The notes below the pieces were generated by a model. It did not search any database, was not told the DNA's origin, and was given only the letters and a program-made list of their open reading frames with translations. A stretch of DNA of 21,781 nt from an uncultured virus (IMG/VR IMGVR_UViG_2891407665_000020) (Duplodnaviria; Heunggongvirae; Uroviricota; Caudoviricetes), in the IMG/VR virus record IMGVR_UViG_2891407665_000020. The stretch is one strand, 5' to 3'. Below, piece by piece: positions 1 to 21,419 of this stretch (position 1 is its first letter; each line of letters opens with the position of its first letter). Both the position numbers and the translations under genes were made by a program.

Positions 1-1
1 T

Positions 2-1453
2 GTACAGGCGTCCGCAAAAACGCGACGCGAGCTTGAACGTTACGGAAAACGGTTAGTTGGCCTTTTGCAGCAGGATAAGATTTGCGTGCGTGAGATCAAA
101 GGGAATATTGGGGAATATTTGTCTAACTTCTGCCCGGCGTCTTTCCAGCGTGGGAATATAAAAAATACTTCAAGTTTTCTCGTAGGCCAGGAAGCGCTTG
201 CATTCCAGATGCCTTATAGGCTGAAAGGGCTTATTAACAGCTCTGGGATGCTCCTTGGTATGGACTGGCAGACCAGACTTCCGTTTGTGTATAACCCTTT
301 GGAGACTCCGGATGGACAGGTCGTGCTTGTTGCCGGTCGTACAGGTTCAGGAAAGACTTACACTTGCTTTAATATTGCACAGCAGGGGATTGGTTATGGC
401 ATACACAGTTCCGCTATAGACTTCAAAGGGCGAGAATGGTGCAAGCTTGCCGAGTTTGTAGACACGAAAGTGATTTCAATGGATGGGGCAGACCCAGTGT
501 TTGTAAATACGTTGCGCTTGGACGACTTAAACTGCACAAAGGACAATTGCAAGGAGATGTTTAGCAACGCAGTGACCGGTACTGTGATGCTGTTATCACT
601 TATGGTAGATTTACAGCCCAACGAAGGGAACGCTGTTGATTTGCATACCATACTTGAAAAAGCAACTATGAAGCTGTACAGCAGGGAAGGCGTGTTCCAG
701 GACAACCCAGAAACATTTAGCAGGACAGCATCAATGACTTACCAGGACATAATTGATATTGTAGCCGATTTGGAAAGCACGGGAATTTATAATGAGAACC
801 AGGTTAGGATTTGTAATTTAATTAAACTTAGGTGCTCAAATTACTTCTCCTCTGATGGGCGGTATAGCGACCTTATGCGGAATGAGGTAACCGTGGGGGA
901 TATTCTTAACACGCCGCTCATTGTATATTCATTCAATAAAAACAGTAATGGCGAGCTTGATTTGCTTGACACCATTAAGGTATTTATGGTGCAGTTCCTA
1001 GATAGCAAAAAGCATGAGATTCGTAAACAGCAGCATTTGCATACATTTGCCTTCTATGAAGAGCTGCAGCGTTGCACCAGCTTCACTGTATTGCTCCGGT
1101 ATATAAGCAGCCGCGTAACAGGGTCAAGGAGTTCAAATGTGTCCGTGTTCCTTTTGCTTAATGCCATTTCGGCGCTTGATTCTGATGCAATGGCACAAAT
1201 ACGTTCTAATATTACAACTAAGATTATTGGGAAAGTGACAGAAGAAGATAAAAAGGTTTTAGTGGAAAAGTTCGGGTGTGGCGCCATTGAAAAGTATATT
1301 GACTTAATAATAGATACGTCAAGTGTTTTATACCGGAATTGTTTTGCCATCCAGTATGAAACAGGGCACAATATGGATAAGGCGCTATTTAAAACTATCC
1401 TCCCTGATTATATGTGGGAAAAGCTGAATACCAGGGATAGCGTGGGTATGTGA
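2..1453 (+). CDS. VirB4/ConE-like conjugative (T4SS) ATPase, C-terminal part; 5'-truncated by the window edge
   Basis: Frame is open from base 2 (VQASAKTRRELERYGKRLVGLLQQD...), so the TTG at 65 is not the true start. Walker A VAGRTGSGKT follows GMLLGMDWQTRLPFVYNP. IDFKGREW matches the VirB4 'iDpkgEy' motif, and a Walker-B-like FAFYEELQR and C-terminal IRSNITTKIIG follow. It sits directly upstream of a wall hydrolase, as in Gram-positive T4SS clusters. Confidence 0.8.
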   Translation, partial: VQASAKTRRELERYGKRLVGLLQQDKICVREIKGNIGEYLSNFCPASFQRGNIKNTSSFLVGQEALAFQMPYRLKGLINSSGMLLGMDWQTRLPFVYNPLETPDGQVVLVAGRTGSGKTYTCFNIAQQGIGYGIHSSAIDFKGREWCKLAEFVDTKVISMDGADPVFVNTLRLDDLNCTKDNCKEMFSNAVTGTVMLLSLMVDLQPNEGNAVDLHTILEKATMKLYSREGVFQDNPETFSRTASMTYQDIIDIVADLESTGIYNENQVRICNLIKLRCSNYFSSDGRYSDLMRNEVTVGDILNTPLIVYSFNKNSNGELDLLDTIKVFMVQFLDSKKHEIRKQQHLHTFAFYEELQRCTSFTVLLRYISSRVTGSRSSNVSVFLLLNAISALDSDAMAQIRSNITTKIIGKVTEEDKKVLVEKFGCGAIEKYIDLIIDTSSVLYRNCFAIQYETGHNMDKALFKTILPDYMWEKLNTRDSVGM

Positions 1454-3558
1454 TGCGTAAAAAAGGTAACGGCTTTGGGAAATTTCTTCTGTCAATAATT
1501 CTAGCAACTTCCATGTTTTTTCTAGCAGCATTATCAGATCTTGATTCTTCAATGATGTACGTGCTCCTTGACCGCACAAGATTCAGCCCCGCCGGGATGT
1601 TATTTGATGGGCTACATGTATTCACAGAGGATGTGGAAGACAACAGCTCTAATAATGGTGCAGTGTCCTACGATGGGCTAAATTATGCTCTGATAGACCA
1701 GCTAAGCAATTCTTATGTCAAGAATCTGCTGAAATTATACCAATCATCAGCTTCAGGTGAGCTGGATAACTTTAAAAGCCATGTCACAGTGACAGGGCTT
1801 TTAACAACGCAGGTTTCCTCTACAGGGTATTATCCGAACACGGCGCTCCCCTTGTCTTATCTGCCTTTTGAGAACAATAAAGTCATTTGGGGGGAACCAT
1901 ACAAGGGCGTATCAAAGGATGATATGACGCTGCGTACTTTTGGTACGCAGCAGTACCGGAAGATTGGCGGGGAGGAATATAACCAGCTGATGAATGAGAA
2001 ACCCGCCAGGAAGCAAGCCGCACCTAAGAGGACCCCATGGGCAATCGACGTTACAGCGTTCAGTGCATCCGGGACTCGTGATTTCAGGAACCTACCTGAC
2101 TGTCTGTCATACCTGAACCAGTTATACGTGGAATCTTTAAAAGCACATGGTATAGAAGACGATTTAGCTTTAGCTTCTAGAGATACACGTATAGGTGACG
2201 CCTTATTTGCTGCCGGGTTGGAACTTGGTAAAGCTGATGCTGTGAAAAGTGCATTTGGCATTCTAGACAGACGTACTAATACGAAGCGTTTGGATATGGG
2301 GAAAAAGGGTTCTGGGGAGATGAGTATTCTTGCCTATAATTCTATTTTGTCCCTGTCACTTGATTTTCTTAATGGGTATCAAAAAGACCAGCGTTGGCAG
2401 GAGCTTTCGCCTGACGAGTTCATAGCAGACGCAGCGGTTGTCCTTGCTTGCAGGAATAACGGGTGGTTTCTCAGCAGAAAGGCTTATGACTCAATTGGGG
2501 AATCTACATTCCGAGTATGGAAGCTTTTGTATGCAGATGATACAGTGGCATCCGTAGCGGATTGTAAAGCAATTGCAGAAACAAAGGTGAAAGACTTACA
2601 AGAGGCCATAACCGCAACAACAGGGGTTCCAGTTAGTAAGAAAGATACACAGAAGGTGTATGGCACTCGAACAGACTATGATGATGCAGCAGGTGACAAC
2701 AATGGTTTTATTTATCATGTTTCTGAAAACGAGTGCAGTCTTTATACACGTTCTTACGATGACAGTACTGCGCCTTCTTTAGTATCCGTATACGACCGCA
2801 AGGTTGCCGGCAAGATAATTTTCACATGTGCCATGGGAGAAGTTTTGTATGTAAATTTACTAAAGGCTGGCGGTCTGACGAATGTTGATGTGACAGACCC
2901 ATCCACTTATAAAAATGAGGTGGTTAATAGCGGTAATAAAGTCTCCAACGGAAATCTAAACAGTATCTATAGCAAGGCCGGTCTTGACTCTACCATGCTT
3001 TCAGCGGAGCGTATTGCTGTTCTCAATAATGCAGCATCCATGCTTGGAAAGGCTTGTTACACATGGGGCGGTGGTCATGGCGGTTACGGGATTGGTGAGA
3101 CTCCGTCGCCAGCTTCTGATGGCATGTATGATTTTGACTGTTCTGGCTTTGTAAGCTGGTGTTTCATGAAAGAGGGTTATCTAAGCAGCCAGCGTGTATC
3201 TAATGGTTATGCACCTGATTTCTATCAGATTGACTATGACGAGCTTTTGCCTGGGGATATTTTCTCATGCAGTGGACATGTAATGATTTATGTGAATACA
3301 GATTCAAAGGGAAACTGCTGGGTAATTGATGATGGTGGGGGTGGGCCCGGCACATACCATGTGTATGTTGAAGGCGAGGTTGGCGTTCGGTTTATGAGCA
3401 AATCACTTCCTGTGAAAAATAAGAATGGGCGCGTTATAAAAACCTCTGGAGGCAGGACCGACAATAGGGTTTACGTGTGTATGCGCGCAAAATCATTTGA
3501 CAAGACCGATACTAAACGTAAAACATACATCCCATCAGGAAACAGTGGAGCAAGGTAA
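1450..3558 (+). CDS. Membrane-anchored NlpC/P60 (C40) peptidoglycan endopeptidase, probable conjugation wall hydrolase (CwlT/VirB1 analogue)
   Basis: N-terminal basic stretch plus hydrophobic helix (RKKGNGFGKFLLSIILATSMFFLAAL). C-terminal LGKACYTWGG...FDCSGFVSWCF...LLPGDIF...GHVMIYV retains the catalytic Cys and His. Overlaps the VirB4 stop (GTGA; alternative ATG at 1453). Confidence 0.85.
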   Translation: MMRKKGNGFGKFLLSIILATSMFFLAALSDLDSSMMYVLLDRTRFSPAGMLFDGLHVFTEDVEDNSSNNGAVSYDGLNYALIDQLSNSYVKNLLKLYQSSASGELDNFKSHVTVTGLLTTQVSSTGYYPNTALPLSYLPFENNKVIWGEPYKGVSKDDMTLRTFGTQQYRKIGGEEYNQLMNEKPARKQAAPKRTPWAIDVTAFSASGTRDFRNLPDCLSYLNQLYVESLKAHGIEDDLALASRDTRIGDALFAAGLELGKADAVKSAFGILDRRTNTKRLDMGKKGSGEMSILAYNSILSLSLDFLNGYQKDQRWQELSPDEFIADAAVVLACRNNGWFLSRKAYDSIGESTFRVWKLLYADDTVASVADCKAIAETKVKDLQEAITATTGVPVSKKDTQKVYGTRTDYDDAAGDNNGFIYHVSENECSLYTRSYDDSTAPSLVSVYDRKVAGKIIFTCAMGEVLYVNLLKAGGLTNVDVTDPSTYKNEVVNSGNKVSNGNLNSIYSKAGLDSTMLSAERIAVLNNAASMLGKACYTWGGGHGGYGIGETPSPASDGMYDFDCSGFVSWCFMKEGYLSSQRVSNGYAPDFYQIDYDELLPGDIFSCSGHVMIYVNTDSKGNCWVIDDGGGGPGTYHVYVEGEVGVRFMSKSLPVKNKNGRVIKTSGGRTDNRVYVCMRAKSFDKTDTKRKTYIPSGNSGAR

Positions 3559-3607
3559 ATCGGTTTAGATTTTTATAAATAATAAAAAGACACGAGGAGG
3601 ATGAACA

Positions 3608-3919
3608 ATGGAACGAGATGTGCAATTGAATGTTTTAATAAAACTTCGCAATGAGATGTGCCGAAAAAAGCGTCTGCTTCCCTATCAGATTTTTACGTGT
3701 GAGTGTGCGGAAGCTATTGTAGAAGCACAGCCGAGGAATCTGGAAGAGCTTGGGAGAGTCAAGGGGTTTCCAGCGGGAGGCAGGAGACACAATAAATACG
3801 GGAAGATAGTACTGTATACATTGCAGAACGCAGATAAGATCGAGGGCTTTGATATAGCAGAATCCGATAACGAGGGTGTGGATATCACGCCAGTGATAAG
3901 GAATATGACATGCTTTTAA
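3608..3919 (+). CDS. Stand-alone HRDC-domain protein
   Basis: LIKLRNEMCRKKRLLPYQIFTCECAEAIVEAQPRNLEELGRVKGF...KYGKIVL matches the HRDC pattern (L..lR...A....pPY.If....l..ia...P....eL..i.G......kyG..il). Strong RBS GAGGAGG upstream. Confidence 0.85.
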   Translation: MERDVQLNVLIKLRNEMCRKKRLLPYQIFTCECAEAIVEAQPRNLEELGRVKGFPAGGRRHNKYGKIVLYTLQNADKIEGFDIAESDNEGVDITPVIRNMTCF

Positions 3920-3963: not shown

Positions 3964-3985
3964 AGTAATGCAAGGAGATAGGCGT

Positions 3986-4504
3986 ATGCGGACTGACCTT
4001 AATGTTAAAGGGGCTGTCTTTGAGTTTGTTATTGGTAACACTCTGAAAACCAATTTTAAACAGTCCAAACTTTTTTATGATATTCGTATAAAGTGCAGAT
4101 GGCTTCGGAGAAACGAGACACAGATAGACCTACTGCTTCTCACGGAAAAGGCGATTTATGTAATAGAGGCAAAAAATTGGAGCCGTGGGATAATTGGCAA
4201 TTATGGCGATTATGTTTGGAGGGGATATGGCAACCAGCCGCAAGGTATGACTGTTGTAAGTCCGTTCCTTCAGAACACGCTGCACACTAGGATGATTAAG
4301 TCCCGCGCGTTATTGCACGGGTGTACAATACCTCAGGTATTTAGCTTTATATGTGTTCCTGACAGCTGTGTAATAAATTCTGACTGCGGGGATATTGTGC
4401 ATTTTTCACAGATAGTACAGAAGATTGCTAGCGTAGAGCACAGCCTTACAAACTATTTTGATGTCCAGGATGTAGCCAGAATAATAGGAGAGTGCAAAGT
4501 ATGA
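3986..4504 (+). CDS. NERD-domain (PD-(D/E)xK) nuclease
   Basis: KGAVFE...TQIDLLLLTEKAIYVIEAKNWSRGIIG...SPFLQNTLH is the NERD signature (QIDh...iEvKN...sP..Qn..h). ATG 3986 is preferred over 3968 because AAGGAG lies 8 nt upstream. Confidence 0.88.
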   Translation: MRTDLNVKGAVFEFVIGNTLKTNFKQSKLFYDIRIKCRWLRRNETQIDLLLLTEKAIYVIEAKNWSRGIIGNYGDYVWRGYGNQPQGMTVVSPFLQNTLHTRMIKSRALLHGCTIPQVFSFICVPDSCVINSDCGDIVHFSQIVQKIASVEHSLTNYFDVQDVARIIGECKV

Positions 4505-5250
4505 AGAAACATTGTTTTACATGCGGTGGGCATGGATTAAAGGATAAGGTATGCCCAGAATGTGGGCTAAAGCATAATTCCATGAACTTGGATAAAAAGC
4601 CCGTTGAGGCAAAGAAACTTGTTATAGCGGCAAAAAAGTGCTTGATACCCGCTGGGTATACCGGTGTCGAATGGAATGAGGAGCGTTTGCGAATGTCGCA
4701 CCAGGAGCGTGCAAAAGACCAACTATTTTTACGGTTTGTTGCACAGTTAGATAAAGTGCATAGTATTTTTGCATCGGGCAGGTTGCCGGCAAAATCGGCT
4801 ATTTTCATAGCGCCGCCGCAGCATTCAAAAATGACTTTTGCATACAGCTGTATGCAGTTAGCGCTTATGCATGGTTTTAAAGTGGCACCATTGTTGGACA
4901 GCCTTGAGGTAAAAAGGCTACTGGTATTAGCTGCGGAGCGCCCGCAGGAGATTGTGCTGGGCATACCTTACGAGGAATATGTAAATGCAGATGTTGTGTT
5001 TATCACAATAACAAAAACAACATATCGTAACAGCGCTTATCAGATTATACAAGAGATGCTGGATAAGAGGAGCAGAAAAGGGCTGCCTACATTTTTTCTT
5101 TCAAGATATAATATGGCGACGCTAAGCGCATGGGACTCATCCAAGTCTTTTGACTATGTTAAGGATTATAACAATACAGAAAACTCGTTAAAGTACCCGG
5201 CAATCATAAACTGCTGGGTCAGGGACGACAGGGCAACGAAAGGGGTGTAG
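4501..5250 (+). CDS. Zn-finger plus DnaC/IstB-like AAA+ protein with degenerate ATPase motifs (putative helicase loader)
   Basis: N-terminal CFTC...CPEC. AIFIAPPQHSKMTFAYS sits at the Walker A position and ADVVFITIT at Walker B. IIQEMLDKRSRKGLPTFFLS matches the DnaC/IstB 'iid.R....lPtiitS' motif. ATG 4501 overlaps the NERD stop (ATGA), with AGGAG upstream. Confidence 0.65.
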   Translation: MKKHCFTCGGHGLKDKVCPECGLKHNSMNLDKKPVEAKKLVIAAKKCLIPAGYTGVEWNEERLRMSHQERAKDQLFLRFVAQLDKVHSIFASGRLPAKSAIFIAPPQHSKMTFAYSCMQLALMHGFKVAPLLDSLEVKRLLVLAAERPQEIVLGIPYEEYVNADVVFITITKTTYRNSAYQIIQEMLDKRSRKGLPTFFLSRYNMATLSAWDSSKSFDYVKDYNNTENSLKYPAIINCWVRDDRATKGV

Positions 5251-5253
5251 CCA

Positions 5254-5757
5254 ATGGATATTTCGAGATACCAGCTGGATAGTTATCGCAATGAGTATGA
5301 ACGGATAAGGAAAGAGATTCCTGCTGTAAAACAGAGAAAGCAGGACGCCCGGGCTGAAGGCGATTTAAGGGAAAATACTGAGTACGATATTGCAAGCTCT
5401 GAGTACGAGCAGCTAATGCGGAGGATGAGCCAGCTAGAAGAGATCATCAGCAGCGCTAATGTTATAGACGCTGATGCAGGTACCAGAATTGGGCTTGGAA
5501 GCTTTGTAAGGATTAAGTGCCTAACCCTGCCTGATAACCAGGAACGTGTCCTGCGTGTAGACGCCAATGGGGATCCAGTCTCTGATAAGAACAATCAAGT
5601 GCTTGGGATTAAATCACCGCTAGGCAGGAAGGTGTTCAACGGCGTATCAGGGGATTACAAGATACAGGCTCCCGCCGGTGAACTTGTGTACCATGTAGAA
5701 AAGATTACGCTAGAGGAGGTAAAAAAGTTCTATGAGGGGTGTGTGGAGGGGCAGTAA
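5254..5757 (+). CDS. greA: GreA/GreB-family transcription elongation factor
   Basis: Coiled-coil tip ARAEGDLRENTEYDIA keeps both acidic residues (GDLxEN). Also IGLGSFVRI and C-terminal SPLGRKVFNG...IQAPAGELVYHVEKI. Confidence 0.9.
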   Translation: MDISRYQLDSYRNEYERIRKEIPAVKQRKQDARAEGDLRENTEYDIASSEYEQLMRRMSQLEEIISSANVIDADAGTRIGLGSFVRIKCLTLPDNQERVLRVDANGDPVSDKNNQVLGIKSPLGRKVFNGVSGDYKIQAPAGELVYHVEKITLEEVKKFYEGCVEGQ

Positions 5758-6175
5758 ACTGTTGATTTTGTCTGTTGCTATTATCATTATCGCAGTAGTC
5801 TTTGGCTTTGGTGCGTTTGCCATAGCAACCCCCGCCCTTGATGGGGAAGATGTTGTGAAACTAATGTACGAGTTTCAGGATGTCAGGGAACTGGATTCCA
5901 ATAAAGAGAAACTGAGGGATTTAGTAACCGACAGCGTATTCGATGAGATTACGGTTGATACAGAGGGCAGAAGGCTGAATACATACCTACGTTTTATGGC
6001 GTCGCCTACACGCGTATCTATTATTAAGAAGACTAACGATTATGTGCTTTATCATATAAAAAATGAGAATATTGACAGTAAGCGCGTATTTCTATTTATG
6101 TTTGAGATAACTAATGGCAAAGTTAGTAAAGTGAGGGAGGCAGAGATTATTGATTTTGTTGAAGTTAATGATTAA
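5732..6175 (+). CDS. Hypothetical protein with N-terminal membrane anchor or signal peptide
   Basis: Hydrophobic LLILSVAIIIIAVVFGFGAFAIA followed by a small soluble alpha/beta domain. GAGGAGG upstream; overlaps the greA end. Confidence 0.7.
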   Translation: MRGVWRGSKLLILSVAIIIIAVVFGFGAFAIATPALDGEDVVKLMYEFQDVRELDSNKEKLRDLVTDSVFDEITVDTEGRRLNTYLRFMASPTRVSIIKKTNDYVLYHIKNENIDSKRVFLFMFEITNGKVSKVREAEIIDFVEVND

Positions 6176-6305
6176 GGTAATCGCCTTTGTGCTATTCTGC
6201 TTTATTAGCGCATATGTAGCGGTGGTCGGAAAGGGTAGAACAGGAATAAAAATTGATTATCTAATTACATCGATACTTTTATGCCTGCTGATGTTTAGGA
6301 TATGA
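6168..6305 (+). CDS. Small two-helix membrane protein (45 aa), absent from the supplied ORF track
   Basis: MIKVIAFVLFCFISAYVAVVGKGRTGIKIDYLITSILLCLLMFRI*. It fills the gap exactly, overlapping the upstream gene by 8 nt and the downstream start by ATGA (6302-6305). Confidence 0.7.
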   Translation: MIKVIAFVLFCFISAYVAVVGKGRTGIKIDYLITSILLCLLMFRI

Positions 6306-7288: not shown

Positions 7289-7390
7289 TCTGTATACCAC
7301 TTATGCTATTGCAGTTTTTTATATGTAATTGTGACAATGAGATAAGTGTGTATTGTCCGCGAGGATTATAAGAAGCGAGGAGGTATTACT
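7289..7390 (+). promoter_or_regulatory. Largest intergenic region; AT-rich, possible promoter or structured leader, with strong RBS
   Basis: Weak sigma-A-like TTGTGA (7329-7334)-16 nt-TATTGT (7351-7356). Inverted repeat CACTTAT (7299-7305) / ATAAGTG (7342-7348). RBS GAGGAGGT before ATG 7391. Confidence 0.3.
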
Positions 7391-8170: not shown

Positions 8171-8172
8171 AA

Positions 8173-8697: not shown

Positions 8698-8698
8698 A

Positions 8699-10307: not shown

Positions 10308-10315
10308 GGGTTACT

Positions 10316-11929: not shown

Positions 11930-11939
11930 GGAGGTTAAT

Positions 11940-12512: not shown

Positions 12513-12522
12513 GGAGGGAACT

Positions 12523-14908: not shown

Positions 14909-14919
14909 GGGGTGTGACA

Positions 14920-15939
14920 ATGGCTTTACTTTCAGGGTGTATTTACGTGCGCCCTAAGGGCGTAATGCAGATTATTGAGCCATGCAGGTCCTATGATGCG
15001 AAAATTAAGTTGAATAAGAAAACTTCCTATTTAGTTGGGATAGACCAGTCAACAAGCTGCACTGGTATCTTCCTGCTGGATAAAACTGCGACATTTTGGA
15101 TACTTATTGACTTTAAGAGGGATGACCCGAACAAAGAATTATTTTTCCGGGATTTGGAGGGATTTTTAAGGGAATTGCTGGATGGGGTGCGTGTCACGCT
15201 TGTTGTGCATGAGGAACCAATACCCAGTACCATAGCGCCTACAGCACATGCAGTTCTTTCCGACTTGCGTGGGCGGCTAAGGTCATGGATTGCAAGGAAT
15301 CCTGCAATGGAGAATGCAGAGCTGCATTCGATATACCCGCAGACGTGGAAGAGCAGGGTGCTTGACAAAGCAGAACTTGCCGGGCGCGGGTTAAAACCAA
15401 AATCTGTTTTTAACTCAAAGTTTAAGATGGCTACGGAATTATGCCGGATTTACCCTTTCTTTGACAGTTACCGTTGCAGACGTTTTTCAACCGATTTCGA
15501 TGCATTCGATGCATTAGGGATTCTGATGGGATATTTGAAGTATTCACATAATGAGAAAGGGCAGCGTAAGATTTGCGGCACTATCGAAAAAAGGCATAAA
15601 ACCATTGTAGGATACGCATACGTAGACAAAAATAGCTTATCATTCCCAGGGACTGTTGACGAGAAATTAGGGATACTGCGGTATTCTCTAATCCCGGCAG
15701 TATTGTCTTTTAATGCAGAATACAGTGTTGCACAGAATATAAAGATGGCAAGCTCTAACTGGAATTTTGTTGTGACTGTTCTGCCTGATAAGTACTTACA
15801 GCCTTTAATGTGGCAGTTTGATTTTAAAGAGGACAAGGGCAAGGTTATGGTTCTGTTTATTTTTAAGAAGAGCTACCTGCGGATGTATAACTCTGTCGAA
15901 GCAATCTGTGAGCTGTTTCCAATGCACGAGGAGGTATGA
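14920..15939 (+). CDS. RuvC-like (RNase H fold) nuclease / Holliday-junction resolvase with C-terminal extension
   Basis: YLVGIDQSTSCTGIFLL (first Asp), VVHEEP (Glu), IYPQTWKSRV and DFDAFDALGI (last Asp pair) follow the phage/plasmid RuvC order. Start is ATG 14920 (or GTG 14914) after AGGGGGTG. Confidence 0.75.
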   Translation: MALLSGCIYVRPKGVMQIIEPCRSYDAKIKLNKKTSYLVGIDQSTSCTGIFLLDKTATFWILIDFKRDDPNKELFFRDLEGFLRELLDGVRVTLVVHEEPIPSTIAPTAHAVLSDLRGRLRSWIARNPAMENAELHSIYPQTWKSRVLDKAELAGRGLKPKSVFNSKFKMATELCRIYPFFDSYRCRRFSTDFDAFDALGILMGYLKYSHNEKGQRKICGTIEKRHKTIVGYAYVDKNSLSFPGTVDEKLGILRYSLIPAVLSFNAEYSVAQNIKMASSNWNFVVTVLPDKYLQPLMWQFDFKEDKGKVMVLFIFKKSYLRMYNSVEAICELFPMHEEV

Positions 15940-15941
15940 TT

Positions 15942-16337
15942 ATGGGAGTTACTCTTTGCAGGGTTCAGAACTTCGAGGAGCATATTTCAGCAGACAGCCA
16001 GGTAAGGTTGGCTGTAGAATTTGAGCAGCCTATCCGCCTACCCGGCATTACCATAGTTCCAGATTTGAAGCCACCTAAGGAACTGCTTGCATTTTACAGC
16101 ATTAATAAAGGGAGAAACCTGCAGTTTCAGGAACTAATAACTGAACTATACAAAGATTTCCTGAACAGCCTGGCAGCAAGGGTAGGGATCCGTATTATAA
16201 CGGATTATGATTTCCGCAAGAAGGAGATTATGGTTGTGTGTAATCCCGATAGTTTTTTTGATTACACATTGCTGCTTGATGAGTGCTTAAAAGACCATGG
16301 GATTTTCACTAAATACTTTATAACTAGGAGGGAATAA
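15942..16337 (+). CDS. Hypothetical protein, possibly DUF488-like
   Basis: VPDLKPPKELLAFY...ELYKDFL...EIMVVC resembles the DUF488 'laPs.eLl......Y...l.....i.llC' pattern. ATG 15942 is 7 nt from GAGGAGG (ORF track start 15936). Confidence 0.6.
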   Translation: MGVTLCRVQNFEEHISADSQVRLAVEFEQPIRLPGITIVPDLKPPKELLAFYSINKGRNLQFQELITELYKDFLNSLAARVGIRIITDYDFRKKEIMVVCNPDSFFDYTLLLDECLKDHGIFTKYFITRRE

Positions 16338-16343
16338 ATTACT

Positions 16344-16868
16344 ATGGCAAGAAAGTTATGGATTGTAGTACTCTTTGTGCTGTCAGCTATACTTTTTGTA
16401 TTCTTTATGTGTGGTTCATTATTTGTAAGGATTACTGTCCCGAGCGGGAGCATGGAACCTACAATACCGGCGGGAAGCAAGCTCCTCGTAAGAAGAGGAA
16501 AGACCGTGGAGCGTGGGGATTTAGTAATGTTCTATTCGGATGAGGAAAGCTGTTATATGATAAAACGGCTTATAGGGGAGCCAGGTGATATTATTGATAT
16601 TCGGCAAGGTACTGTGTATGTTAATGGTGTTTTCCTTAACGAGCCTTATGTGGGTTCCTACTCAGAGGATTCTGGCATTTATTGTATACCGGAGGATTCT
16701 TATTTTTTTCTAGGGGATAACCGTGCAGATTCCGACGATTCACGAGAATGGCAGAATCCTTATGTTTACAAGGGCCAGATAATAGGCAGGGCTGTTGCTT
16801 TTATCAGCCCAGAGTTTAAGATAATTAAGCAGACGGAGGATCTTTATGCAGAAACTTACAGCAACTGA
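16344..16868 (+). CDS. lepB: Signal peptidase I (S26)
   Basis: N-terminal TM helix, VPSGSMEPTI (catalytic Ser), YMIKRLIGEPGD (catalytic Lys) and YFFLGDNRADSDDSR. Confidence 0.93.
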   Translation: MARKLWIVVLFVLSAILFVFFMCGSLFVRITVPSGSMEPTIPAGSKLLVRRGKTVERGDLVMFYSDEESCYMIKRLIGEPGDIIDIRQGTVYVNGVFLNEPYVGSYSEDSGIYCIPEDSYFFLGDNRADSDDSREWQNPYVYKGQIIGRAVAFISPEFKIIKQTEDLYAETYSN

Positions 16869-18495
16869 TAAGTGTATACTGATGGCAGTACAGGCGGCTT
16901 TGCAGGAGAAAGGATGGATACCGCTTTTGGACGAGTATGCCGGGGTGTTACGTTTAGGTGACTTTATACTATATTTGTACCAAGACAGTTCAGATTTAGA
17001 GGGTAAGACCGGAACTAAGTTTTGTTATAGCGCGGGAGAGCTTGCTGATTCTGCGCTGAATACGACTAAAAAGGCAATTAATTATAAAATGCATTATTAT
17101 TTGCCAGAGTACCACTGGTGGATGGAGTGCTGCGGTGTTCTTGTAGCCATGGGTAAATTTAAAAAGACTTTTGGGGCAATTTATCACGGATCCGCCACTG
17201 AGAAAGTAAAACAGCAGTTTATGGAGTGTATGGATTCTATACATAGCATAGCGGCGCTGGGATGCGAGCGTGCGTTTAGGAATAGGCCTTCTTACAGTGT
17301 CCAACTTAAACCTGCAATGCGTCATGAACTTGTGCCGCACGATGCTGGCGTTCAGGAGGATTTATACCTGCGTACAGGCGAGGATCTTTATTATCTGGTA
17401 AAACGCCTTGGTGAAGAAGATGGTAGTAACACTGTTTATGCGCTTATCCCAGTCTCACTGAAAAAAGAGGATGGCTTAATTAAGGTTGATATTATCAAGA
17501 GCAATAAGCCAGTGCGCACAACATCTAGCGGGCTTTCACAGCTGCTGCGGCAGGGTGAGCTGCCTGCTTTCCGTATAGTCGAAGATCCCTATGAAGTAAA
17601 GGAGATGGTGTGGACTAATGAGAGTGTCCGTAGTTCAACCTACCATGAACATCCATTGCTTAAGCAGTTCAGCGGGTTTGGGCTGAATGGTTCACAAAAG
17701 GAGATCTTGTCACTTGGGCTTGACAGGGTTTATAATATCACGCCATTCCTGAACGGAAATATAGATGCTGCAACAGGCGCATACTTACTGAAATTTATCA
17801 GCAATGGTTTGGATGTATCGCTCATTACAATGAGCTACAGCGAAGAGGTCATGCAGACGCTGTTTAATATTGCAAATGGCGGTTTGTCCTTGCACAAGTA
17901 TGTGAATCCTGGGTATAGCCTGGACCGGATACGGACAATTTACAATGAGTTTTTGTCTGGTTTTGAGTTACAGAAAGAGCGGCTGGAAAAAGAAGGATAT
18001 AGCGAAGCGCAGATAAATTTTATGAGGCTTGTTGCTTCCAAGGGGAAAGGATTTTCACACCTTAAGACTGGGGAGCCTTTACCGGCATTATGGCTTCGCG
18101 ATGAGATAGCCATGGGCAATCATGTAGAGCTTATGACCTGGATGATCCCTTATGCCACCGACGACAATGCTGCTAATATCAGGATTCCCTGGAGAGTCCT
18201 GCCAGAATCCCTGCAGGAATACGTGATCCAGTGGTTCCGCAGTGTGCCTGAGGTTATGCTTGGAGGGCACAGCTGGGATAATATTGTGCTCCATGCAGCT
18301 AAGAATGCAACCGGGATTTGCTACAGTTATAAATACGGACTTATGCTGGAGTGCAATTATAATTTCCTGGCAATGGATTCTAACAGCGTGATGCTGAAAG
18401 CTTCCAGCTTCTTGAATGCTGCTAACGCTATGTTCATAAACGGCAGTATGTTTGTAAATGATTCCAAGTTTAGCCAGCTGCAGTTAGCATTATGA
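16846..18495 (+). CDS. Hypothetical protein with internal degenerate ~25-aa helical repeats
   Basis: 549-aa ORF with GGAGG RBS. Repeat-like units include SQKEILSLGLD, NGLDVSLITMSYSEEVMQ, GGLSLHKYVNPGYSLDRIR and GYSEAQINFMR. Confidence 0.75.
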   Translation: MQKLTATDKCILMAVQAALQEKGWIPLLDEYAGVLRLGDFILYLYQDSSDLEGKTGTKFCYSAGELADSALNTTKKAINYKMHYYLPEYHWWMECCGVLVAMGKFKKTFGAIYHGSATEKVKQQFMECMDSIHSIAALGCERAFRNRPSYSVQLKPAMRHELVPHDAGVQEDLYLRTGEDLYYLVKRLGEEDGSNTVYALIPVSLKKEDGLIKVDIIKSNKPVRTTSSGLSQLLRQGELPAFRIVEDPYEVKEMVWTNESVRSSTYHEHPLLKQFSGFGLNGSQKEILSLGLDRVYNITPFLNGNIDAATGAYLLKFISNGLDVSLITMSYSEEVMQTLFNIANGGLSLHKYVNPGYSLDRIRTIYNEFLSGFELQKERLEKEGYSEAQINFMRLVASKGKGFSHLKTGEPLPALWLRDEIAMGNHVELMTWMIPYATDDNAANIRIPWRVLPESLQEYVIQWFRSVPEVMLGGHSWDNIVLHAAKNATGICYSYKYGLMLECNYNFLAMDSNSVMLKASSFLNAANAMFINGSMFVNDSKFSQLQLAL

Positions 18496-19235
18496 AGAGA
18501 CTGCTACTAATAGTTATGCTGGCAGCCGTATTGACAGTGTTAGGCTATTGTTACGGATACCGTGTATCTGACACTAATTATTTCCAGGATGAAGTTACTG
18601 ATTATTACCGTTATTATAACGAGCAGCCTAAGAAGTATTACCATTCCCAGCAGGGAGCTGCATATCCTTTTGCCTATAATGAGAAGTGCAGTTTATACGA
18701 AGATGGCTTGTTTGAAGTTTATGGTATTTTTCCGCGTATCACGAGATTTAGCATTTTTGTCGACTGCAAGGACAAACAGATGATTTTCCAGGATTTTGAG
18801 ATCATTCTTGTGTTTTACGGAGAGGACAATCGAGTGGTCGGGAAGGAGAGTTCTACGCTTCACAATGTAAAGGCAGATGAGATACACGAGTTGAAATTTA
18901 AGTGTGTCGAGGGTGCACAGTATGTGGCTGTTTATGATATCAGTTACGCATTGATGGATCCTGACAGCTTGCTGGCTGTGTACTCAGCATACGAACTCCC
19001 TGCCAGGATTAAAGGTGAGTACTGCGACGTCACGATTACAGCGCCTGGGAGTAATTGTGTGGCGGTTACCGGGGATGTGAAGCAAGGGTATTCTGCAACT
19101 ATCTCGTTATTGAATAGGCACTACAAGGAACTTGAACAAATTAGCATAAGCGGCAAGAGCACTGTTAATTTAAGGAGATACACAGACTACGGCCTAAAAT
19201 ATTGCACAGTGCTTATTACGCAAGGAGGAGGGTGA
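18492..19235 (+). CDS. Exported or membrane-anchored protein with a possible FxLYD-type Ig-like domain
   Basis: Signal/TM segment MKRLLLIVMLAAVLTVLGYCYG. IILVFYGEDNRVVGKESSTLHNVKADEIHELKF resembles FxLYD beta-sandwich domains. ATGA overlap with the previous gene. Confidence 0.65.
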   Translation: MKRLLLIVMLAAVLTVLGYCYGYRVSDTNYFQDEVTDYYRYYNEQPKKYYHSQQGAAYPFAYNEKCSLYEDGLFEVYGIFPRITRFSIFVDCKDKQMIFQDFEIILVFYGEDNRVVGKESSTLHNVKADEIHELKFKCVEGAQYVAVYDISYALMDPDSLLAVYSAYELPARIKGEYCDVTITAPGSNCVAVTGDVKQGYSATISLLNRHYKELEQISISGKSTVNLRRYTDYGLKYCTVLITQGGG

Positions 19236-21419
19236 ATGGAAACAGATTTATTTTTACAACAATGCAATTCCGCAATGGGGTTCCCTGCTGCAGATGAGAC
19301 GACAGTCGGTGCCGATGATATGGATTTAATGGACTATTTTGGTATACTTGAGGATGACCTTGACGACGGGTTCACCGAGGCAAAGGATTCAGGATTGCAA
19401 TCTTCTGCGTTGGGTGAGGTGTATGACAGCATTGCGTGTGTGCCATCCAAGGGATATTCTATCACGTCTGTCTATATAGAGAATAGCGCACAGGAGAATA
19501 AGGGCGCTGAGACAGCCATTAGCGATTTTGATTCACTTACGGAATTGGAAATAGATTTCTTTGGGTGGGCTGTGAGCGTGCTAGGTACCAGCGTTACCGC
19601 CATGGCACACCAAACATTCAAAGAATTTGTAGTAGAAGTTTATAAGTTACTCTACCCAGATAAGGACTTCCAGGGAACAGACTATGCCCTATACGATTAT
19701 GTGTGCAGCCGGTATGGGGCAAATGTTTCATACGCGGTATTTAAGGAGAACGCACAGAATCCAATGGCGCTCCTAAGAAACCTGGCACACCCCTACAGGC
19801 GAGTGTCGGGGGAAGAAGTGGGTGTTATCCGGAAACATTGCATGTGCAGCTATTTTAATCCTGAGGATGTATACGCCTGTTCTTTGGAGCCGAGGGACAC
19901 AGAGATGATTTGTACACTACAGGAACGCGGCAGCTTTAACAGGAATGAGGCTTTACTGTACTGCAGCGACTATGACACATTATACTTCTATCTGTTATTG
20001 AGCATAAATGGTGCATACAATGCGGCAGAATACCGCCAGTGCGTCTCTATAGGGACTTGTAATGCATACGCTATGGGAAAACTTAATAATGACCCAGGGG
20101 TTACTGATGCTTTAAGCAGGAGGAGTGACTGGGTGGAGTGCGAAAAGTATTTGTCATCGGTATCGCCAGAGCTAGTAACCAAGTACTGCAAGGCAGAGTA
20201 TTTAGCGCCGCTTCTAAAGTTCGCAAGTATTTACGGAGTGAACATTGAATTGGTTGAGATGTATTTCCTTAAAAAGAGCCCATTATCTGAGCGGCTAATC
20301 AGCTGCCTGGATGACAGGAAGTTTATGTCAGAAGTTTGCCAGAATCCAGTAACTTTTCCTACTAAGCTCTTGGAGAAATACTGTAACAGCGTTGGGATCT
20401 CTATAGCGGATTGTGATATTGGCAATGATTTCGCATGGCAGCTAATGACAATGTTTGCTTCAAGTGATATAACATTAGAAGACGTTTTGCTGTATTTAAT
20501 AATCAACCAGCAGGGCAATGCTTTGTCCGATTTCCTTAAAGAGCATGGCATTACTGGTAAATGCAGCTTTTTTATTGCAGAATATGTTTCGGGTTTGATT
20601 GGAAAACAGGGATTTGCATTACCAAGCATTAGCGCACCGTTTTTGTACCAGTTCCGTTCTGGAGGTAGCAGCATGGTTTTTAATGTATACGAGTTTATTA
20701 ATCATGTTGAGTATTATTCCGCACGGATTAAGAAATACGCAATGACAAGCCAGGTCATAAGCTGTAATCAGATACGTGATATTGGTTATTGTATTAATTT
20801 TGGCAAAGATACAACTCTCTTTAAGAGGATGCAGGAGCGGGATAAGAAGTACCATTGTTCGTTGCAGGTATGGCTTTCCACTGCGAAGAAGCCAAAATAT
20901 GTAGTTACTACAAGCACTGTGTTACGTTATAATTTGCAGGTACTTGAGGAGGTCTTGCCTGAGGAGATCAGGGATTTCTGCTTAAAGATTCTGCAAGCTT
21001 TAGGGAATGTTGATTCTAAGAAGTACGCGTCATACGACCTTGTCTTGAATTACCTGTATTATAAACAAGGATACTGTGTTGCAATGACACAGAGGAATTT
21101 CCCAAGGATTGTATTTTCCTTAATGAATGCGATTTTGATGGACAATGATTTTGATGTTACGGTGTGCTTCCTGTATACTTTGTTCAATAATTTGTTCCCA
21201 GGCAAGGTGAAATCTAGTTTCATCACGCAGGAGATTATGAGGAATGAGCCAATAATAGTAATACAGCGAAACCATAATGATATCGCGGAGTTTAATGACC
21301 GGGTGCTGTTCATCAGCAGCTTTGACAGGGTCATTAAATGTATTCCCGAAACCGATGTTAAAGATGTTATCCTAAGGAAAACAGGACAAAAGCTGACTGT
21401 TGATATCTGCAGCAGCTAG
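19236..21419 (+). CDS. Large hypothetical protein (727 aa) with acidic N-terminus; Cys/Tyr-rich
   Basis: Long ORF with AAGGAGG RBS, abutting the previous stop. No motif recognised. Confidence 0.75.
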   Translation: METDLFLQQCNSAMGFPAADETTVGADDMDLMDYFGILEDDLDDGFTEAKDSGLQSSALGEVYDSIACVPSKGYSITSVYIENSAQENKGAETAISDFDSLTELEIDFFGWAVSVLGTSVTAMAHQTFKEFVVEVYKLLYPDKDFQGTDYALYDYVCSRYGANVSYAVFKENAQNPMALLRNLAHPYRRVSGEEVGVIRKHCMCSYFNPEDVYACSLEPRDTEMICTLQERGSFNRNEALLYCSDYDTLYFYLLLSINGAYNAAEYRQCVSIGTCNAYAMGKLNNDPGVTDALSRRSDWVECEKYLSSVSPELVTKYCKAEYLAPLLKFASIYGVNIELVEMYFLKKSPLSERLISCLDDRKFMSEVCQNPVTFPTKLLEKYCNSVGISIADCDIGNDFAWQLMTMFASSDITLEDVLLYLIINQQGNALSDFLKEHGITGKCSFFIAEYVSGLIGKQGFALPSISAPFLYQFRSGGSSMVFNVYEFINHVEYYSARIKKYAMTSQVISCNQIRDIGYCINFGKDTTLFKRMQERDKKYHCSLQVWLSTAKKPKYVVTTSTVLRYNLQVLEEVLPEEIRDFCLKILQALGNVDSKKYASYDLVLNYLYYKQGYCVAMTQRNFPRIVFSLMNAILMDNDFDVTVCFLYTLFNNLFPGKVKSSFITQEIMRNEPIIVIQRNHNDIAEFNDRVLFISSFDRVIKCIPETDVKDVILRKTGQKLTVDICSS

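Follow-up and report, generated by a model that had tools for sequence, protein, structure and literature searches.

Bacillota ICEs of the Tn916, ICEBs1 and Tn5397 type combine a T4SS of VirB4, an FtsK-like coupling ATPase and a wall hydrolase with large serine recombinases, and to our knowledge carry no RNA polymerase set, replisome, Hsp70, TubZ or pair of signal peptidases. Natural rpoB-rpoC fusions are found in Helicobacter and Wolbachia, where they encode the hosts' essential enzymes and are highly similar to other bacterial RpoB/RpoC. Hodors, conjugative megaplasmids of human-gut Bacillota, are described as free replicons of 211–389 kb with Rep_3, ParB, ParM and multiple sortases, first mistaken for huge phages without TerL (PMC12934698), and a term search of that paper's text found no mention of RNA polymerase. 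Jumbo phages are reported to have multisubunit RNA polymerases, with beta and beta' in several pieces and no alpha, as well as PolA/DnaB replisomes and PhuZ/TubZ tubulins (PMC7598289, PMC7824862). Gene-intervening elements of spore formers have been described in sigK (skin), spsM (SPbeta) and gerE (gin) (PMC4191935, PMC5595907, PMC5499854, PMC5025042).

The stretch of DNA analysed here (21,781 nucleotides, hereafter the window) forms the middle of an island of at least 145 kb (C1:143,087-288,116) inside a 310-kb chromosomal contig (C1). We consider it reasonably likely that the window makes up the central part of a giant integrative element, probably conjugative, whose transcription and replication machinery is private. 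The window contains 23 ORFs, all on the + strand and spanning positions 2 to 21781 with a coding share of 99%, listed here with their occurrence among 35 related metagenome loci where counted.

2..1453, + strand: VirB4/TraG-P-loop-like ATPase, C-terminal 483 of 659 aa, Walker A GRTGSGKT
1450..3558, + strand: cell-wall hydrolase, 702 aa, C-terminal NlpC/P60 (Pfam NLPC_P60 2.3e-7)
3608..3919, + strand: HRDC-domain protein, 103 aa (Pfam HRDC 7.8e-7; 28/35 loci)
3968..4504, + strand: NERD nuclease-related protein, 178 aa (Pfam NERD 2.2e-16; 27/35 loci)
4492..5250, + strand: DnaC/DnaI-like AAA+ helicase loader, 252 aa, N-terminal zinc ribbon (AF2/Foldseek; 23/35 loci, median identity 46%)
5254..5757, + strand: GreA-like transcript-cleavage factor, 167 aa (Pfam GreA_GreB_N 1.6e-13; 20/35 loci)
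5732..6175, + strand: conserved ORF, 147 aa, no Pfam/PHROG/NCBIfam match (21/35 loci, median identity 41%)
6302..9007, + strand: four ORFs of 328, 274, 174 and 102 aa (6302-7288, 7346-8170, 8173-8697, 8699-9007), some with predicted membrane segments, no Pfam/PHROG/NCBIfam match (5, 2, 10 and 8 of 35 loci, counts limited by the 10-kb flank)
8955..10307, + strand: SF2 (SNF2/ResIII-type) helicase, 450 aa (Pfam ResIII 5.3e-15, SNF2-rel 1.5e-11, Helicase_C 4.3e-10; 12/35 loci)
10316..11929, + strand: DnaB-like replicative helicase, 537 aa (Pfam DnaB_C 3.2e-7; phrog_19, phrog_239), Walker A GSVNIGKS
11901..12512, + strand: ORF, 203 aa, no Pfam/PHROG/NCBIfam match
12523..14298, + strand: divergent Hsp70, 591 aa (Pfam HSP70 1.2e-80)
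14285..14908, + strand: CHC2 primase zinc-finger protein without Toprim, 207 aa (Pfam Zn_ribbon_DnaG 1.7e-8)
14914..15939, + strand: RuvC-like resolvase, 341 aa (phrog_159 1.4e-10)
15936..16337, + strand: ORF, 133 aa, no Pfam/PHROG/NCBIfam match
16344..16868, + strand: bacterial-type signal peptidase I, 174 aa (Pfam Peptidase_S26 5e-35)
16846..21419, + strand: three ORFs of 549, 247 and 727 aa (16846-18495, 18492-19235, 19236-21419), no match in Pfam, PHROGs (also at E<=0.01) or NCBIfam
21434..21781, + strand: DUF6431 zinc-ribbon protein, 115 aa (Pfam DUF6431 1.3e-23)

The 22 junctions between these ORFs have gaps of -4, 49, 48, -13, 3, -26, 126, 57, 2, 1, -53, 8, -29, 10, -14, 5, -4, 6, -23, -4, 0 and 14 nt; nine overlap, one abuts and 18 are at or below 14 nt, a spacing that suggests translational coupling. 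The unbroken same-strand block of more than 21 kb proposed by the first-pass annotation is therefore borne out. Every domain it named (VirB4-like, NlpC/P60, HRDC, NERD, DnaC/DnaI-like, GreA, SF2, DnaB, Hsp70, primase zinc finger, RuvC-like and signal peptidase I) was recovered by Pfam/PHROG, fold or ESM Atlas evidence, and its "about ten ORFans" correspond to 10 of the 23 ORFs without assignment.

The family comprises 62 metagenome loci, spread through human- and mouse-gut assemblies. In the 35 loci of at least 15 kb the genes from the transfer ATPase through GreA and SF2 to DnaB keep the order of the window, on the same strand, which argues that the order is not due to chance. The longest-contig values 154,203 and 158,636 are the same for homologues of the RNA polymerase (described below), Hsp70 and VirB4-like proteins, and 13 further values are common to two of the three, which suggests that these genes share contigs elsewhere. 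Contigs of 260-269 kb carry some of the relatives. PLSDB and INPHARED yielded no relative, none was among the IMG/VR matches listed, and no description of such an element was found in the literature searched; mobile elements of this kind seem to be widespread and yet undescribed. The large, poorly described replicon anticipated from the window is supported by its surroundings, which go further still, but the element is integrated in the chromosome here and is not a free replicon.

The start of the VirB4-like gene lies at C1:186,880, 526 nt ahead of the window, and the gene is present in 35/35 loci. Its product has no direct match in Pfam, PHROG, NCBIfam or PDB sequences, and its assignment is supported by the Walker A motif and by ESM Atlas clusters of the TraG-P-loop/AAA_10/DUF87 and TraC kind (feature scores 0.98-0.99; structure TM 0.56-0.72); its homologues form 85 clusters of 34-99% identity, the 99% being its own cluster, and some carry PF19044 or PF01935. 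The NlpC/P60 hydrolase has one predicted membrane segment and occurs in 23/35 loci; in one relative a Peptidase_M23 domain occupies this position. With a 6-TM giant protein and a ParA-like ATPase, these two genes make up a T4SS-like module that runs directly into the replication and transcription genes, from HRDC through signal peptidase I. Elsewhere the island encodes an FtsK-like ATPase, T2SSE, a sortase, LPXTG-type giant adhesins, a 2,409-aa TQ/SpaA adhesin, and SipW with its TasA-like substrate (NCBIfam), and the element has two signal peptidases. The VirB4-like and FtsK-like ATPases, wall hydrolase and adhesins indicate, as far as gene content can, that the element is probably conjugative; relaxase, VirD4 and VirB6 had no model match on the island in Pfam, NCBIfam or PHROGs. 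Among NCBIfam models T7SS EssC gives the FtsK-like ATPase its best score and the other ATPase is GspE/PilB-like, a pattern that would also fit a secretion or pilus apparatus in place of a DNA conduit.

The first 143 kb of the contig (C1:1-143 kb) are chromosomal, with flagellar genes, mutSL, mreBCD, minCDE, obg, L21/L27 and the his operon. Of the 116 island ORFs, 114 lie on one strand. An intact large serine recombinase occupies one island end (C1:143,087-144,769; Resolvase 3e-32, Recombinase and zinc ribbon; phrog_95 2.5e-111). This end interrupts the 3' end of an alpha/beta-type SASP (spore-protein) gene, whose ORF reads into the element, and an intact homologous SASP gene on another contig (C20) reveals the missing C-terminus. 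The rest of this SASP gene did not turn up on C1; the far end given above is a minimum, and the element may extend to the contig end at 310 kb. The host, a spore-forming, flagellated member of the Bacillota, lives in the mouse gut. In two other studies contigs bridge the junction with equal depth either side; in a third run the junction is where a 139-kb contig of the element begins, at 20.7x versus 4-8x on the flank. An element nearly identical to this one (18 substitutions plus gaps over 9.9 kb) was in 3-fold excess and uncoupled from the flank in one run, and no attP/attB joint was seen in assembled contigs. The label "semi-autonomous" is inferred from gene content and one depth hint. Contigs from RNA libraries also cover the element and may be DNA carry-over.

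An alternative reading is an integrated megaplasmid or chromid-like island that has lost self-transmissibility, in which T4SS-like, pilus and adhesin genes serve adhesion or secretion and the polymerases only maintain and express the island. Profile searches of the island found no relaxase or oriT-type protein, the motor ATPases match EssC and GspE/PilB best, ParA and TubZ are plasmid partition genes, element and flank are at equal depth in two runs, and the relatives' 260-269 kb contigs could be free replicons. We nevertheless regard this idea as rather unlikely, given the intact recombinase, the location in a conserved gene, the uncoupled 3-fold excess, and the conserved synteny of a family found in human- and mouse-gut assemblies; moreover, Hodor megaplasmids without a canonical relaxase have been argued to be conjugative (PMC12934698).

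The private machinery extends well beyond the window. A fused beta-beta' RNA polymerase of 2,752 aa (Rpb2_6 4.6e-57, Rpb1_2, Rpb1_5) is encoded on the island, with an intact NADFDGD motif that is invariant among 25 aligned homologues. The model of an alpha N-terminal-domain (alpha-NTD) subunit (pLDDT 93) matched RNAP alpha or RNAP complexes in 45/45 listed Foldseek PDB matches (ranks 1-50, E ~1e-12), and a sigma-70-like factor (Sigma70_r2 and r4; C1:163,916-164,524) follows the DUF6431 gene just past the window; the element has a bacterial-type RNA polymerase set of alpha-NTD, fused beta-beta' and sigma. Replication genes elsewhere on the island comprise PolA, clamp loader, ligase and a Toprim primase domain, the last at C1:225,529-226,311, apart from the CHC2 gene; UvrD and a RecJ-like gene are also present, and partition-type genes are ParA and TubZ. 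Within the window, the loader model (pLDDT 73.4) matched DnaC in the DnaBC complex best among PDB structures (6qem_G, 3.6e-6), followed by DnaI (5he8, 2w58) and IstB, and its CxxC..CPxCG motif is invariant in an alignment of 18 sequences. The GreA-like factor reaches 1.3e-22 with NCBIfam greA, under that model's cut-off.

An ordinary chromosome, with the fused gene as the RNA polymerase of the host and the remaining genes as housekeeping copies, could be argued from the bin itself: the fused gene is its only PF00562 (RpoB domain 6) match, host rpoB was not found, and tblastn found no second DnaB. The contig also carries ribosomal-protein (L21/L27) and other core genes. This reading is extremely improbable. 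The bin is 94.9% complete and mixed, the fused protein shares only ~26% identity with cellular RpoB/RpoC, and ordinary rpoB frames occur in relatives from the host family. Other bin contigs carry cellular-type DnaK, GreA, LepB, PolA, clamp-loader and LigA genes at 23-44% identity, including a GreA-like gene on C5 (32%) and two LepB-like genes on C19 (36% to the window signal peptidase I). The recombinase in the disrupted SASP gene bounds the block, of which 400 host-family genomes yielded no copy. The element Hsp70 is 34-37% identical to host-family DnaK and 38-99% identical to its best 120 listed homologues (99% being its own cluster); it falls in a long-branched group separate from host-family DnaK (SH-aLRT 100), and no close relative was found in the 400 genomes, one per genus. 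The earlier proposal of private, divergent copies of host machinery is upheld by this tree and by the RNA polymerase.

If the element were a jumbo temperate phage or phage-plasmid, integrated by the serine integrase and with virion proteins too divergent for profile searches, its RNA polymerase, replisome and tubulin would have their role in a phage-like lytic programme. Jumbo phages are known to carry multisubunit RNA polymerases, replisomes and tubulins, the integrase belongs to phrog_95, the TubZ-like protein matches the PhuZ PHROG, several Atlas clusters closest to the VirB4-like ATPase are labelled Uroviricota, the NlpC/P60 protein matches a 'minor tail' PHROG, and Ig-like 'tail/structural' matches were obtained for a 501-aa ORF just beyond the core; ~75% of the proteins have no PHROG match (any match in 28/114). 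We consider this quite improbable, however, since capsid, portal and terminase were matched by 0/114 island proteins at 1e-5 and by 0/45 unknowns at 0.01, in agreement with the absence of virion genes expected from the first reading. The sortase, LPXTG-type adhesins, SipW with its TasA-like substrate, and VirB4-like and FtsK-like ATPases are plasmid/ICE hallmarks, jumbo-phage polymerases are split and without alpha (PMC7598289, PMC7824862) while this one is fused and accompanied by alpha-NTD, and neither INPHARED nor the IMG/VR matches listed contained a relative.

For a giant integrative, probably conjugative element, the large serine recombinase would have placed it in the SASP gene and would excise it as a circle. 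Its own replisome would copy it, ParA and TubZ would segregate it, and its own polymerase would transcribe its long co-directional operons, with GreA rescuing stalled transcription complexes. Hsp70 may fold the very large surface and channel proteins, which the signal peptidases would help to export, and adhesins and a T4SS-like channel with the FtsK-like motor may carry DNA into new cells.

Compared with known systems, the element resembles Hodors (PMC12934698) as a very large gut-Bacillota element with a sortase, a complex surface-protein module, ParA and VirB4, in which VirB6 and relaxase are hard to recognise, but it is integrated, has no Rep_3 match and carries its own polymerases. Like phiKZ and AR9/PBS2-type jumbo phages, as these have been described, it is a mobile genome with a multisubunit RNA polymerase, replisome and tubulin; unlike them, it has one 2,752-aa beta-beta' chain, alpha-NTD, a sigma-70-type factor and GreA, and no virion genes were found. 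Beta and beta' are joined in one polypeptide as in Helicobacter and Wolbachia, yet the enzyme is far from the cellular subunits in sequence (~26% identity) and lies on a mobile island. As in accounts of skin, SPbeta and gin, a large serine recombinase sets the element inside a sporulation-related coding region, but the target is an alpha/beta SASP gene and virion genes were not found. SPbeta, at ~134 kb, is similar in size, and its polymerase YonO differs from a full cellular-type enzyme such as the element's. Alpha/beta SASP genes are forespore-expressed, and mother-cell excision and reconstitution would therefore not serve the SASP gene. With Bacillota ICEs the element shares chromosomal insertion inside a gene through a large serine recombinase, a VirB4-like ATPase whose gene precedes that of a membrane-anchored hydrolase (NlpC/P60 or M23), a giant polytopic membrane protein, an ATPase of the FtsK/SpoIIIE type and surface adhesins. 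Unlike Tn916-, ICEBs1- and Tn5397-type ICEs, it has no recognisable relaxase, is five to eight times larger, and carries alpha-NTD, fused beta-beta', sigma, GreA, a replisome, Hsp70, TubZ and two signal peptidases.

The window is part of a chromosomally integrated island that spans 145 kb or more (C1:143,087-288,116, possibly running on to the contig end), whose genes are carried on one strand and whose gene content includes a block with conserved synteny in related loci. The window occupies positions 164,573-186,353 on the minus strand of C1, a 310,254-bp contig of the parent genome bin G000. Twenty-three ORFs were called in it, all on the window's plus strand and with a coding share of 99%; their 22 junctions range from -53 to +126 nt, with nine overlapping, one abutting and 18 of 14 nt or less. 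ORF calling over the whole contig (283 ORFs, 95% coding) and scanning against Pfam identified C1:1-143 kb as ordinary chromosome. From the recombinase end to C1:288,116, 114 of the 116 called ORFs lie on the window's strand, one exception being a shadow frame. No Rfam family was found in the window and no tRNA in C1:133-310 kb.

Features assigned on contig C1 and in the window
C1:1-143 kb: chromosomal genes, namely flagellar genes, mutS/mutL, mreBCD, minCDE, sepF, lexA, obg, L21/L27, his operon, recU, coaD and rsmD
Window, plus strand: Pfam families NlpC/P60, HRDC, NERD, GreA, SF2 helicase, DnaB_C, CHC2 primase zinc finger, Peptidase_S26 and DUF6431
Window, plus strand: HSP70 (Pfam, 1.2e-80)
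Window 14914-15939, plus strand: RuvC-like resolvase (PHROG match)
Island outside the window: PolA of 1,341 aa and a second PolA-like ORF
Island outside the window: clamp-loader subunit, 5'-3' exonuclease and NAD-ligase-like protein
Island outside the window: UvrD, RecJ-like DHH protein and RNase T-like exonuclease
Island outside the window: Toprim ORF and second NERD protein
Island outside the window: ParA and TubZ-like tubulin (partition)
Island outside the window: FtsK/SpoIIIE ATPase and GspE/PilB-type ATPase (transfer or secretion)
Island outside the window: sortase and transglutaminase-like protein (surface)
Island outside the window: SpaA-domain proteins of 1,568 aa and 1,745 aa (surface)
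Island outside the window: TQ-ester/SpaA adhesin of 2,409 aa (surface)
C1:146,213-154,133: SipW-type signal peptidase and SipW-dependent TasA/BsaA-like substrate (NCBIfam)
C1:289,000-310,254, mixed orientation: Xer-like integrase, GmrSD fragment, Schlafen/AlbA_2, IrrE-like peptidase and D-Ala-D-Ala-ligase-like protein
C1:289,000-310,254, at the contig end: three DUF4116 repeat proteins

The first-pass annotation had read a DnaC-like protein from the sequence alone. The AF2 model of the 252-aa ORF concerned (window 4492-5250; pLDDT 73.4) bears this out, with Foldseek matches to DnaC in the DnaBC complex (6qem_G, E 3.6e-6), DnaI and IstB, and a zinc ribbon is invariant across an alignment of 18 loader sequences from related loci (distinct complete ORFs from 17 of 23 matches). 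The estimate of about ten ORFans was also accurate, 10 of the 23 window ORFs still being without assignment. The primase is split, with a CHC2 zinc-finger protein that lacks a Toprim domain (window 14285-14908) and a separate Toprim ORF at C1:225,529-226,311, ~53 kb upstream in the element. The SipW-type peptidase and the SipW-dependent protein flank the 1,568-aa SpaA adhesin (C1:146,213-154,133), an arrangement that suggests an element-encoded fibre or matrix module besides the window's LepB-type peptidase.

One end of the island carries a large serine recombinase (C1:143,087-144,769, 560 aa) with Resolvase, Recombinase and zinc-ribbon domains (phrog_95, 2.5e-111), which adjoins chromosomal genes and lies inside the ORF of a spore protein (SASP). 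From 142,980 (to 143,210), the plus strand of C1 encodes a typical alpha/beta-type SASP whose 3' end is cut off by the element. Because the SASP frame enters element DNA after '...GGYMVKK' and closes in an unrelated tail, and because a homologue on another contig of the bin (C20) is intact and ends '...GGEMVRRMIKSQEEQMK', we conclude that an ssp gene carries the element in its 3' end. About 18 codons at the end of the recombinase ORF fall on the host side of this junction, and excision would therefore alter the recombinase C-terminus.

Junction depth was assessed from assembled contigs of four public runs on C1:133-153 kb (comparison L009). Single contigs from two other studies span it (L009:3825-18563 and 8652-17069), at the same depth to either side. 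A third run has the chromosomal side in fragments only (4.4-7.8x, ending at L009:9721), and a 139,250-bp element contig starts at L009:10142 at 20.7x, with 18 substitutions plus gaps over 9.9 kb; there, a near-identical element is ~3x commoner than the flank, the two being uncoupled precisely at the junction. Such an excess is a hint, not proof, of an episomal copy or of a second host or site. The junction region is present in 20 runs from 13 studies, labelled mouse, mouse-gut metagenome or coded organisms, and long contigs of other runs would end within the repetitive TQ adhesin gene. On the chromosomal side, a short, partly palindromic intergenic repeat with many loose ends (C1:136,700-136,855) has a summed depth of 177-998x in four runs versus ~5-18x in its flanks; it matched no Rfam family or tRNA, and elsewhere in the bin only short copies occur.

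No boundary was recognised at the opposite end. When the recombinase end was compared with C1:286-310 kb for att-like repeats, direct or inverted, only chance-level matches (15-19 nt) appeared. The missing SASP C-terminus was not found, no synteny with the C20 SASP locus was detected, and neither the SASP gene nor the chromosome could be seen to resume in C1:288-310 kb. Definition of attB from the congeneric genome G084 was abandoned, the latter being too divergent (67% DNA identity). The region C1:289,000-310,254 is low in GC (31-38% in places), has genes in both orientations and could be either element cargo or a separate island.

G000 is a mixed bin. C1:102-140 kb is syntenic with another of its contigs, C14, at 45-87% amino-acid identity. 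The duplicated region (C1:102,000-140,500 versus C14:3,000-38,000) comprises xer-lexA-obg-L27-L21-rng-his-recU-coaD-rsmD, with proteins differing by 13-55%. Since the counterpart in the congener G084 is C14 (match 83-92%), not C1, the latter and hence the element's host probably derive from a different organism than most of the bin. Cellular-type DnaK, GreA, LepB (two copies), PolA, clamp-loader and LigA are encoded on other contigs and are 23-44% identical to those of the element. The chromosomal part of C1 also contains three flagellin genes followed by ~25 kb with genes for glycosyltransferases, radical-SAM proteins, aminotransferases and nucleotide-sugar functions (C1:38,000-68,000), probably a flagellin glycosylation island.

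The island also encodes an RNA polymerase set. The beta and beta' subunits are fused in one 2,752-aa chain with the Pfam domains Rpb2_6, Rpb2_7, Rpb2_45, Rpb1_2, Rpb1_4 and Rpb1_5, and the NADFDGD magnesium motif (N1652-D1658) is invariant in an alignment of 25 fused polymerases, drawn from the 120 homologues listed; the catalytic motif, double-psi barrel and beta domains of a bacterial RNA polymerase are all present. A 212-aa ORF (C1:205,076-205,714) has a weak RpoA match in NCBIfam. Its AF2 model (pLDDT 93.2, 50 homologues aligned) was compared with the PDB using Foldseek, and each of the 45 matches listed among ranks 1-50 is either an RNA polymerase alpha subunit or an RNA polymerase complex (E 6e-13 to 1.3e-11, TMq 0.63-0.72). 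Its 115 homologues are 77-242 aa long, nearly all ~190-240 aa. By its modelled fold, the ORF is identified as an RNA polymerase alpha N-terminal domain without the C-terminal domain. A sigma-70-like ORF of 202 aa adjoins the window (Sigma70_r2 4.7e-10, r4 6.9e-9) and, as a candidate sigma, joins the alpha-NTD, beta-beta' and, in the window, GreA among the element's transcription proteins; no omega (RpoZ) family match was obtained in profile scans. No shared promoter motif was visible in 30 intergenic gaps of at least 35 nt, and sigma-70-like sites in the window were not above chance (33 versus 42.9 +/- 7 in shuffles). RNA-library contigs cover parts of the element, but as they may stem from DNA carry-over they are not read as a sign of expression.

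The fused protein is ~26% identical to cellular RNA polymerase subunits, and the host-family genomes have ordinary rpoB frames. Together with its location inside the recombinase-bounded island and the fact that elsewhere it seems to occur alongside the transfer ATPase, these sequence comparisons argue that the polymerase is element-borne. Neither a host rpoB nor a host dnaB was found in the bin. A scan of genome contigs with the RNA polymerase alignment was rejected as a source of relatives, the matches listed being only cellular rpoB/rpoC and the pattern NADFDG being universal.

Protein clusters revealed a large set of relatives. At E<=1e-10, 827 clusters are homologous to the fused polymerase, the best 120 of which are 1,725-3,201 aa long (nearly all 2,400-2,920) and, its own cluster aside, 33-75% identical. 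The clusters listed derive mostly from Logan and ENA assemblies, some with >1,000 members, and the only named entries among them come from a Lachnospiraceae isolate and from Paraclostridium bifermentans, each annotated 'hypothetical protein'. The element-type Hsp70 has at least 120 homologues (those listed 38-72% identical, own cluster aside), among which the Lachnospiraceae isolate is represented too, and the VirB4-like ORF has 85 clusters (32-82%, own aside), 80 of which are 633-675 aa long. Identical sizes of the longest contigs, with 154,203 and 158,636 common to all three families and thirteen further sizes common to two of the three, suggest that the polymerase, Hsp70 and VirB4-like homologues are located on the same contigs.

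Scanning metagenome contigs with a VirB4-like alignment (from 28 of the 85 clusters) recovered 62 loci at 32-61% identity, mostly from human-gut assemblies and on contigs of up to 670 kb. Synteny was analysed in those 35 loci that reach 15 kb or more, the remaining 27 being too short, and a shared gene order recurs in them on the same strand. The conserved order (counts out of 35) is a 402-aa protein (19), a 1,472-aa protein with six TM (32), proteins of 326 aa (32), 449 aa (31; ParA-like as a lead only) and 435 aa (32), the VirB4-like protein (35) and the wall hydrolase (23), then HRDC (28), NERD (27), the loader (23), GreA (20), a 147-aa protein (21) and, further on, SF2 (12) and DnaB (8), with the later counts bounded by the 10-kb flank. 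The family appears to be common in human- and mouse-gut assemblies. Five of the human-gut loci (L300-L303 and L335) are on contigs of nearly equal size (260,775-268,802 bp, ~261-269 kb), which might each represent a whole, free replicon of some related element.

A single Hsp70 protein as query gave no match on the metagenome contigs, and in 400 host-family genomes (one per genus) the element Hsp70 found DnaK-level matches (34-37%) and an unrelated ~570-aa paralogue only. The paralogues of ~565-570 aa in four family genomes were rejected as an element marker, with no other element protein within 20 kb. This second Hsp70 is 30-33% identical to that of the element (G148:C1:4,273,034-4,274,482; G213:C109; G386:C43; G167:C61). 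In a quick IQ-TREE analysis of 25 element Hsp70s, 11 family DnaKs and 3 paralogues, midpoint-rooted and with the careful search unfinished, a long branch (SH-aLRT 100) sets the element Hsp70s apart, and they diverge among themselves far more than the DnaKs do, in keeping with the private, divergent version of host machinery claimed in the first-pass annotation.

A tailed jumbo phage or prophage would be expected to encode capsid, portal and terminase. PHROGs of these kinds were matched by none of the 114 element proteins at E<=1e-5 and by none of the 45 unknown ORFs of at least 250 aa at E<=0.01, and profile scans of the element found no Pfam families for them. Any PHROG match at 1e-5 was limited to 28 of the 114 proteins, and 'tail' labels stem from an NlpC/P60 domain, a metallo-hydrolase and an Ig-like ORF. 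Judged by these profiles, the element does not appear to be a tailed phage. No relative of the polymerase or Hsp70 was found in PLSDB or INPHARED, and viral-contig scans with the RNA polymerase and Hsp70 alignments returned, among the matches listed, only generic ones (22-45%).

The evidence for a transfer apparatus begins with the VirB4-like ORF, which is 659 aa in full and enters the window at its 5' end. It matched nothing in Pfam, PHROGs, NCBIfam or PDB sequences. The original VirB4-like call is nevertheless upheld by a Walker A motif, by ESM Atlas neighbours of the TraG-P-loop/AAA_10/DUF87 (VirB4/TraC) type (features 0.98-0.99, structure TM 0.56-0.72) and by PF19044 or PF01935 (DUF87) on some homologues, so that, at the level of fold and language model only, it would represent the VirB4-family ATPase of an ICE (integrative and conjugative element). 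A 725-aa FtsK_SpoIIIE-domain protein (Pfam 7.6e-23) is a candidate coupling ATPase; its top NCBIfam match is T7SS EssC (2.4e-18), far under the model cut-off. A recombinase at the element end and insertion in a chromosome, as in an ICE, are both present. Relaxase families were not found across the element ORFs in profile scans against Pfam (1e-5), PHROGs (1e-5, 0.01) and NCBIfam (1e-3), and the element thus seems, on sequence, to lack the relaxase and oriT known from ICEs, although a novel relaxase may be encoded among the unknown ORFs. The position after the VirB4-like gene is occupied among relatives by Peptidase_M23 or NlpC/P60 hydrolases in proteins of similar size; of two distant relatives, L340:12007-14265 and L339:11993-13933, one has M23 and the other NlpC/P60 (compare window 1450-3558).

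These components are compatible with a mechanism in which the recombinase would excise the element as a circle, with replication by DnaB and the DnaI-like loader, split primase, PolA, clamp loader and ligase, and partition by ParA and TubZ. The element sigma would guide an alpha2-beta-beta' enzyme to element promoters, and GreA would restart backtracked complexes on the very long co-directional operons. Hsp70 and two signal peptidases may fold and process giant exported proteins, sortase-anchored adhesins may draw cells together, and DNA movement would fall to the two ATPases (VirB4-like and FtsK-like) together with the hydrolase and the polytopic giant protein. Transfer is the weakest link of this scheme: the scans found no relaxase, and the motor ATPases are also similar to those of T7SS and pili.

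We tentatively suggest, as a reading somewhat short of probable, that these islands form a class of their own, as yet undescribed, among the giant mobile elements that gut Bacillota carry. Such elements would join a conjugation-like transfer apparatus to a full bacterial-type core for information processing (alpha-NTD, fused beta-beta', sigma, GreA, PolA, DnaB, loader, primase, clamp loader, ligase and Hsp70) and would be largely host-independent in transcription and replication. By current understanding, plasmids and ICEs rely on host RNA polymerase and, to our knowledge, phages are the only bacterial mobile elements that bring multisubunit polymerases. An integrative conjugation-like element with a polymerase set, a replisome and a chaperone would blur the line between plasmid, phage and minimal chromosome. 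If so, a private polymerase may allow establishment in distant hosts or escape from host silencing, and the polymerase might be delivered together with the DNA. Confirmation would raise the questions of how a transferred element bootstraps its own transcription, which promoters the element sigma reads, whether having its own polymerase broadens the element's host range or lets it evade silencing and defence, and where fused polymerases lacking the alpha-CTD belong in RNA polymerase evolution.

Among known systems, the element would work like a Bacillota ICE, yet departs from one in the relaxase, and we know of no described ICE that carries machinery of this kind. In the main texts of open-access papers, no ICE or plasmid combining a fused RNA polymerase with GreA and Hsp70 was found described. 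SASP genes act in the forespore, and an ssp site therefore fits poorly with the mother-cell excision model of skin, SPbeta and gin. Insertion in a sporulation-related gene is common to the element and these three (PMC4191935, PMC5595907). Hodor megaplasmids are described as free circular replicons of >200 kb with a Rep_3 initiator and ParA/ParB/ParM (PMC12934698). They share with the element ParA, a sortase/surface module and the look of a 'huge phage without terminase', but the element has no Pfam match to Rep_3, ParB or ParM and is integrated rather than free. Jumbo phages likewise have a private multisubunit polymerase, which PMC7598289 and PMC7824862 describe as split and without alpha, whereas that of the element is fused and has an alpha-NTD. 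The proposed class would resemble jumbo phages in transcribing and replicating itself, but without a virion.
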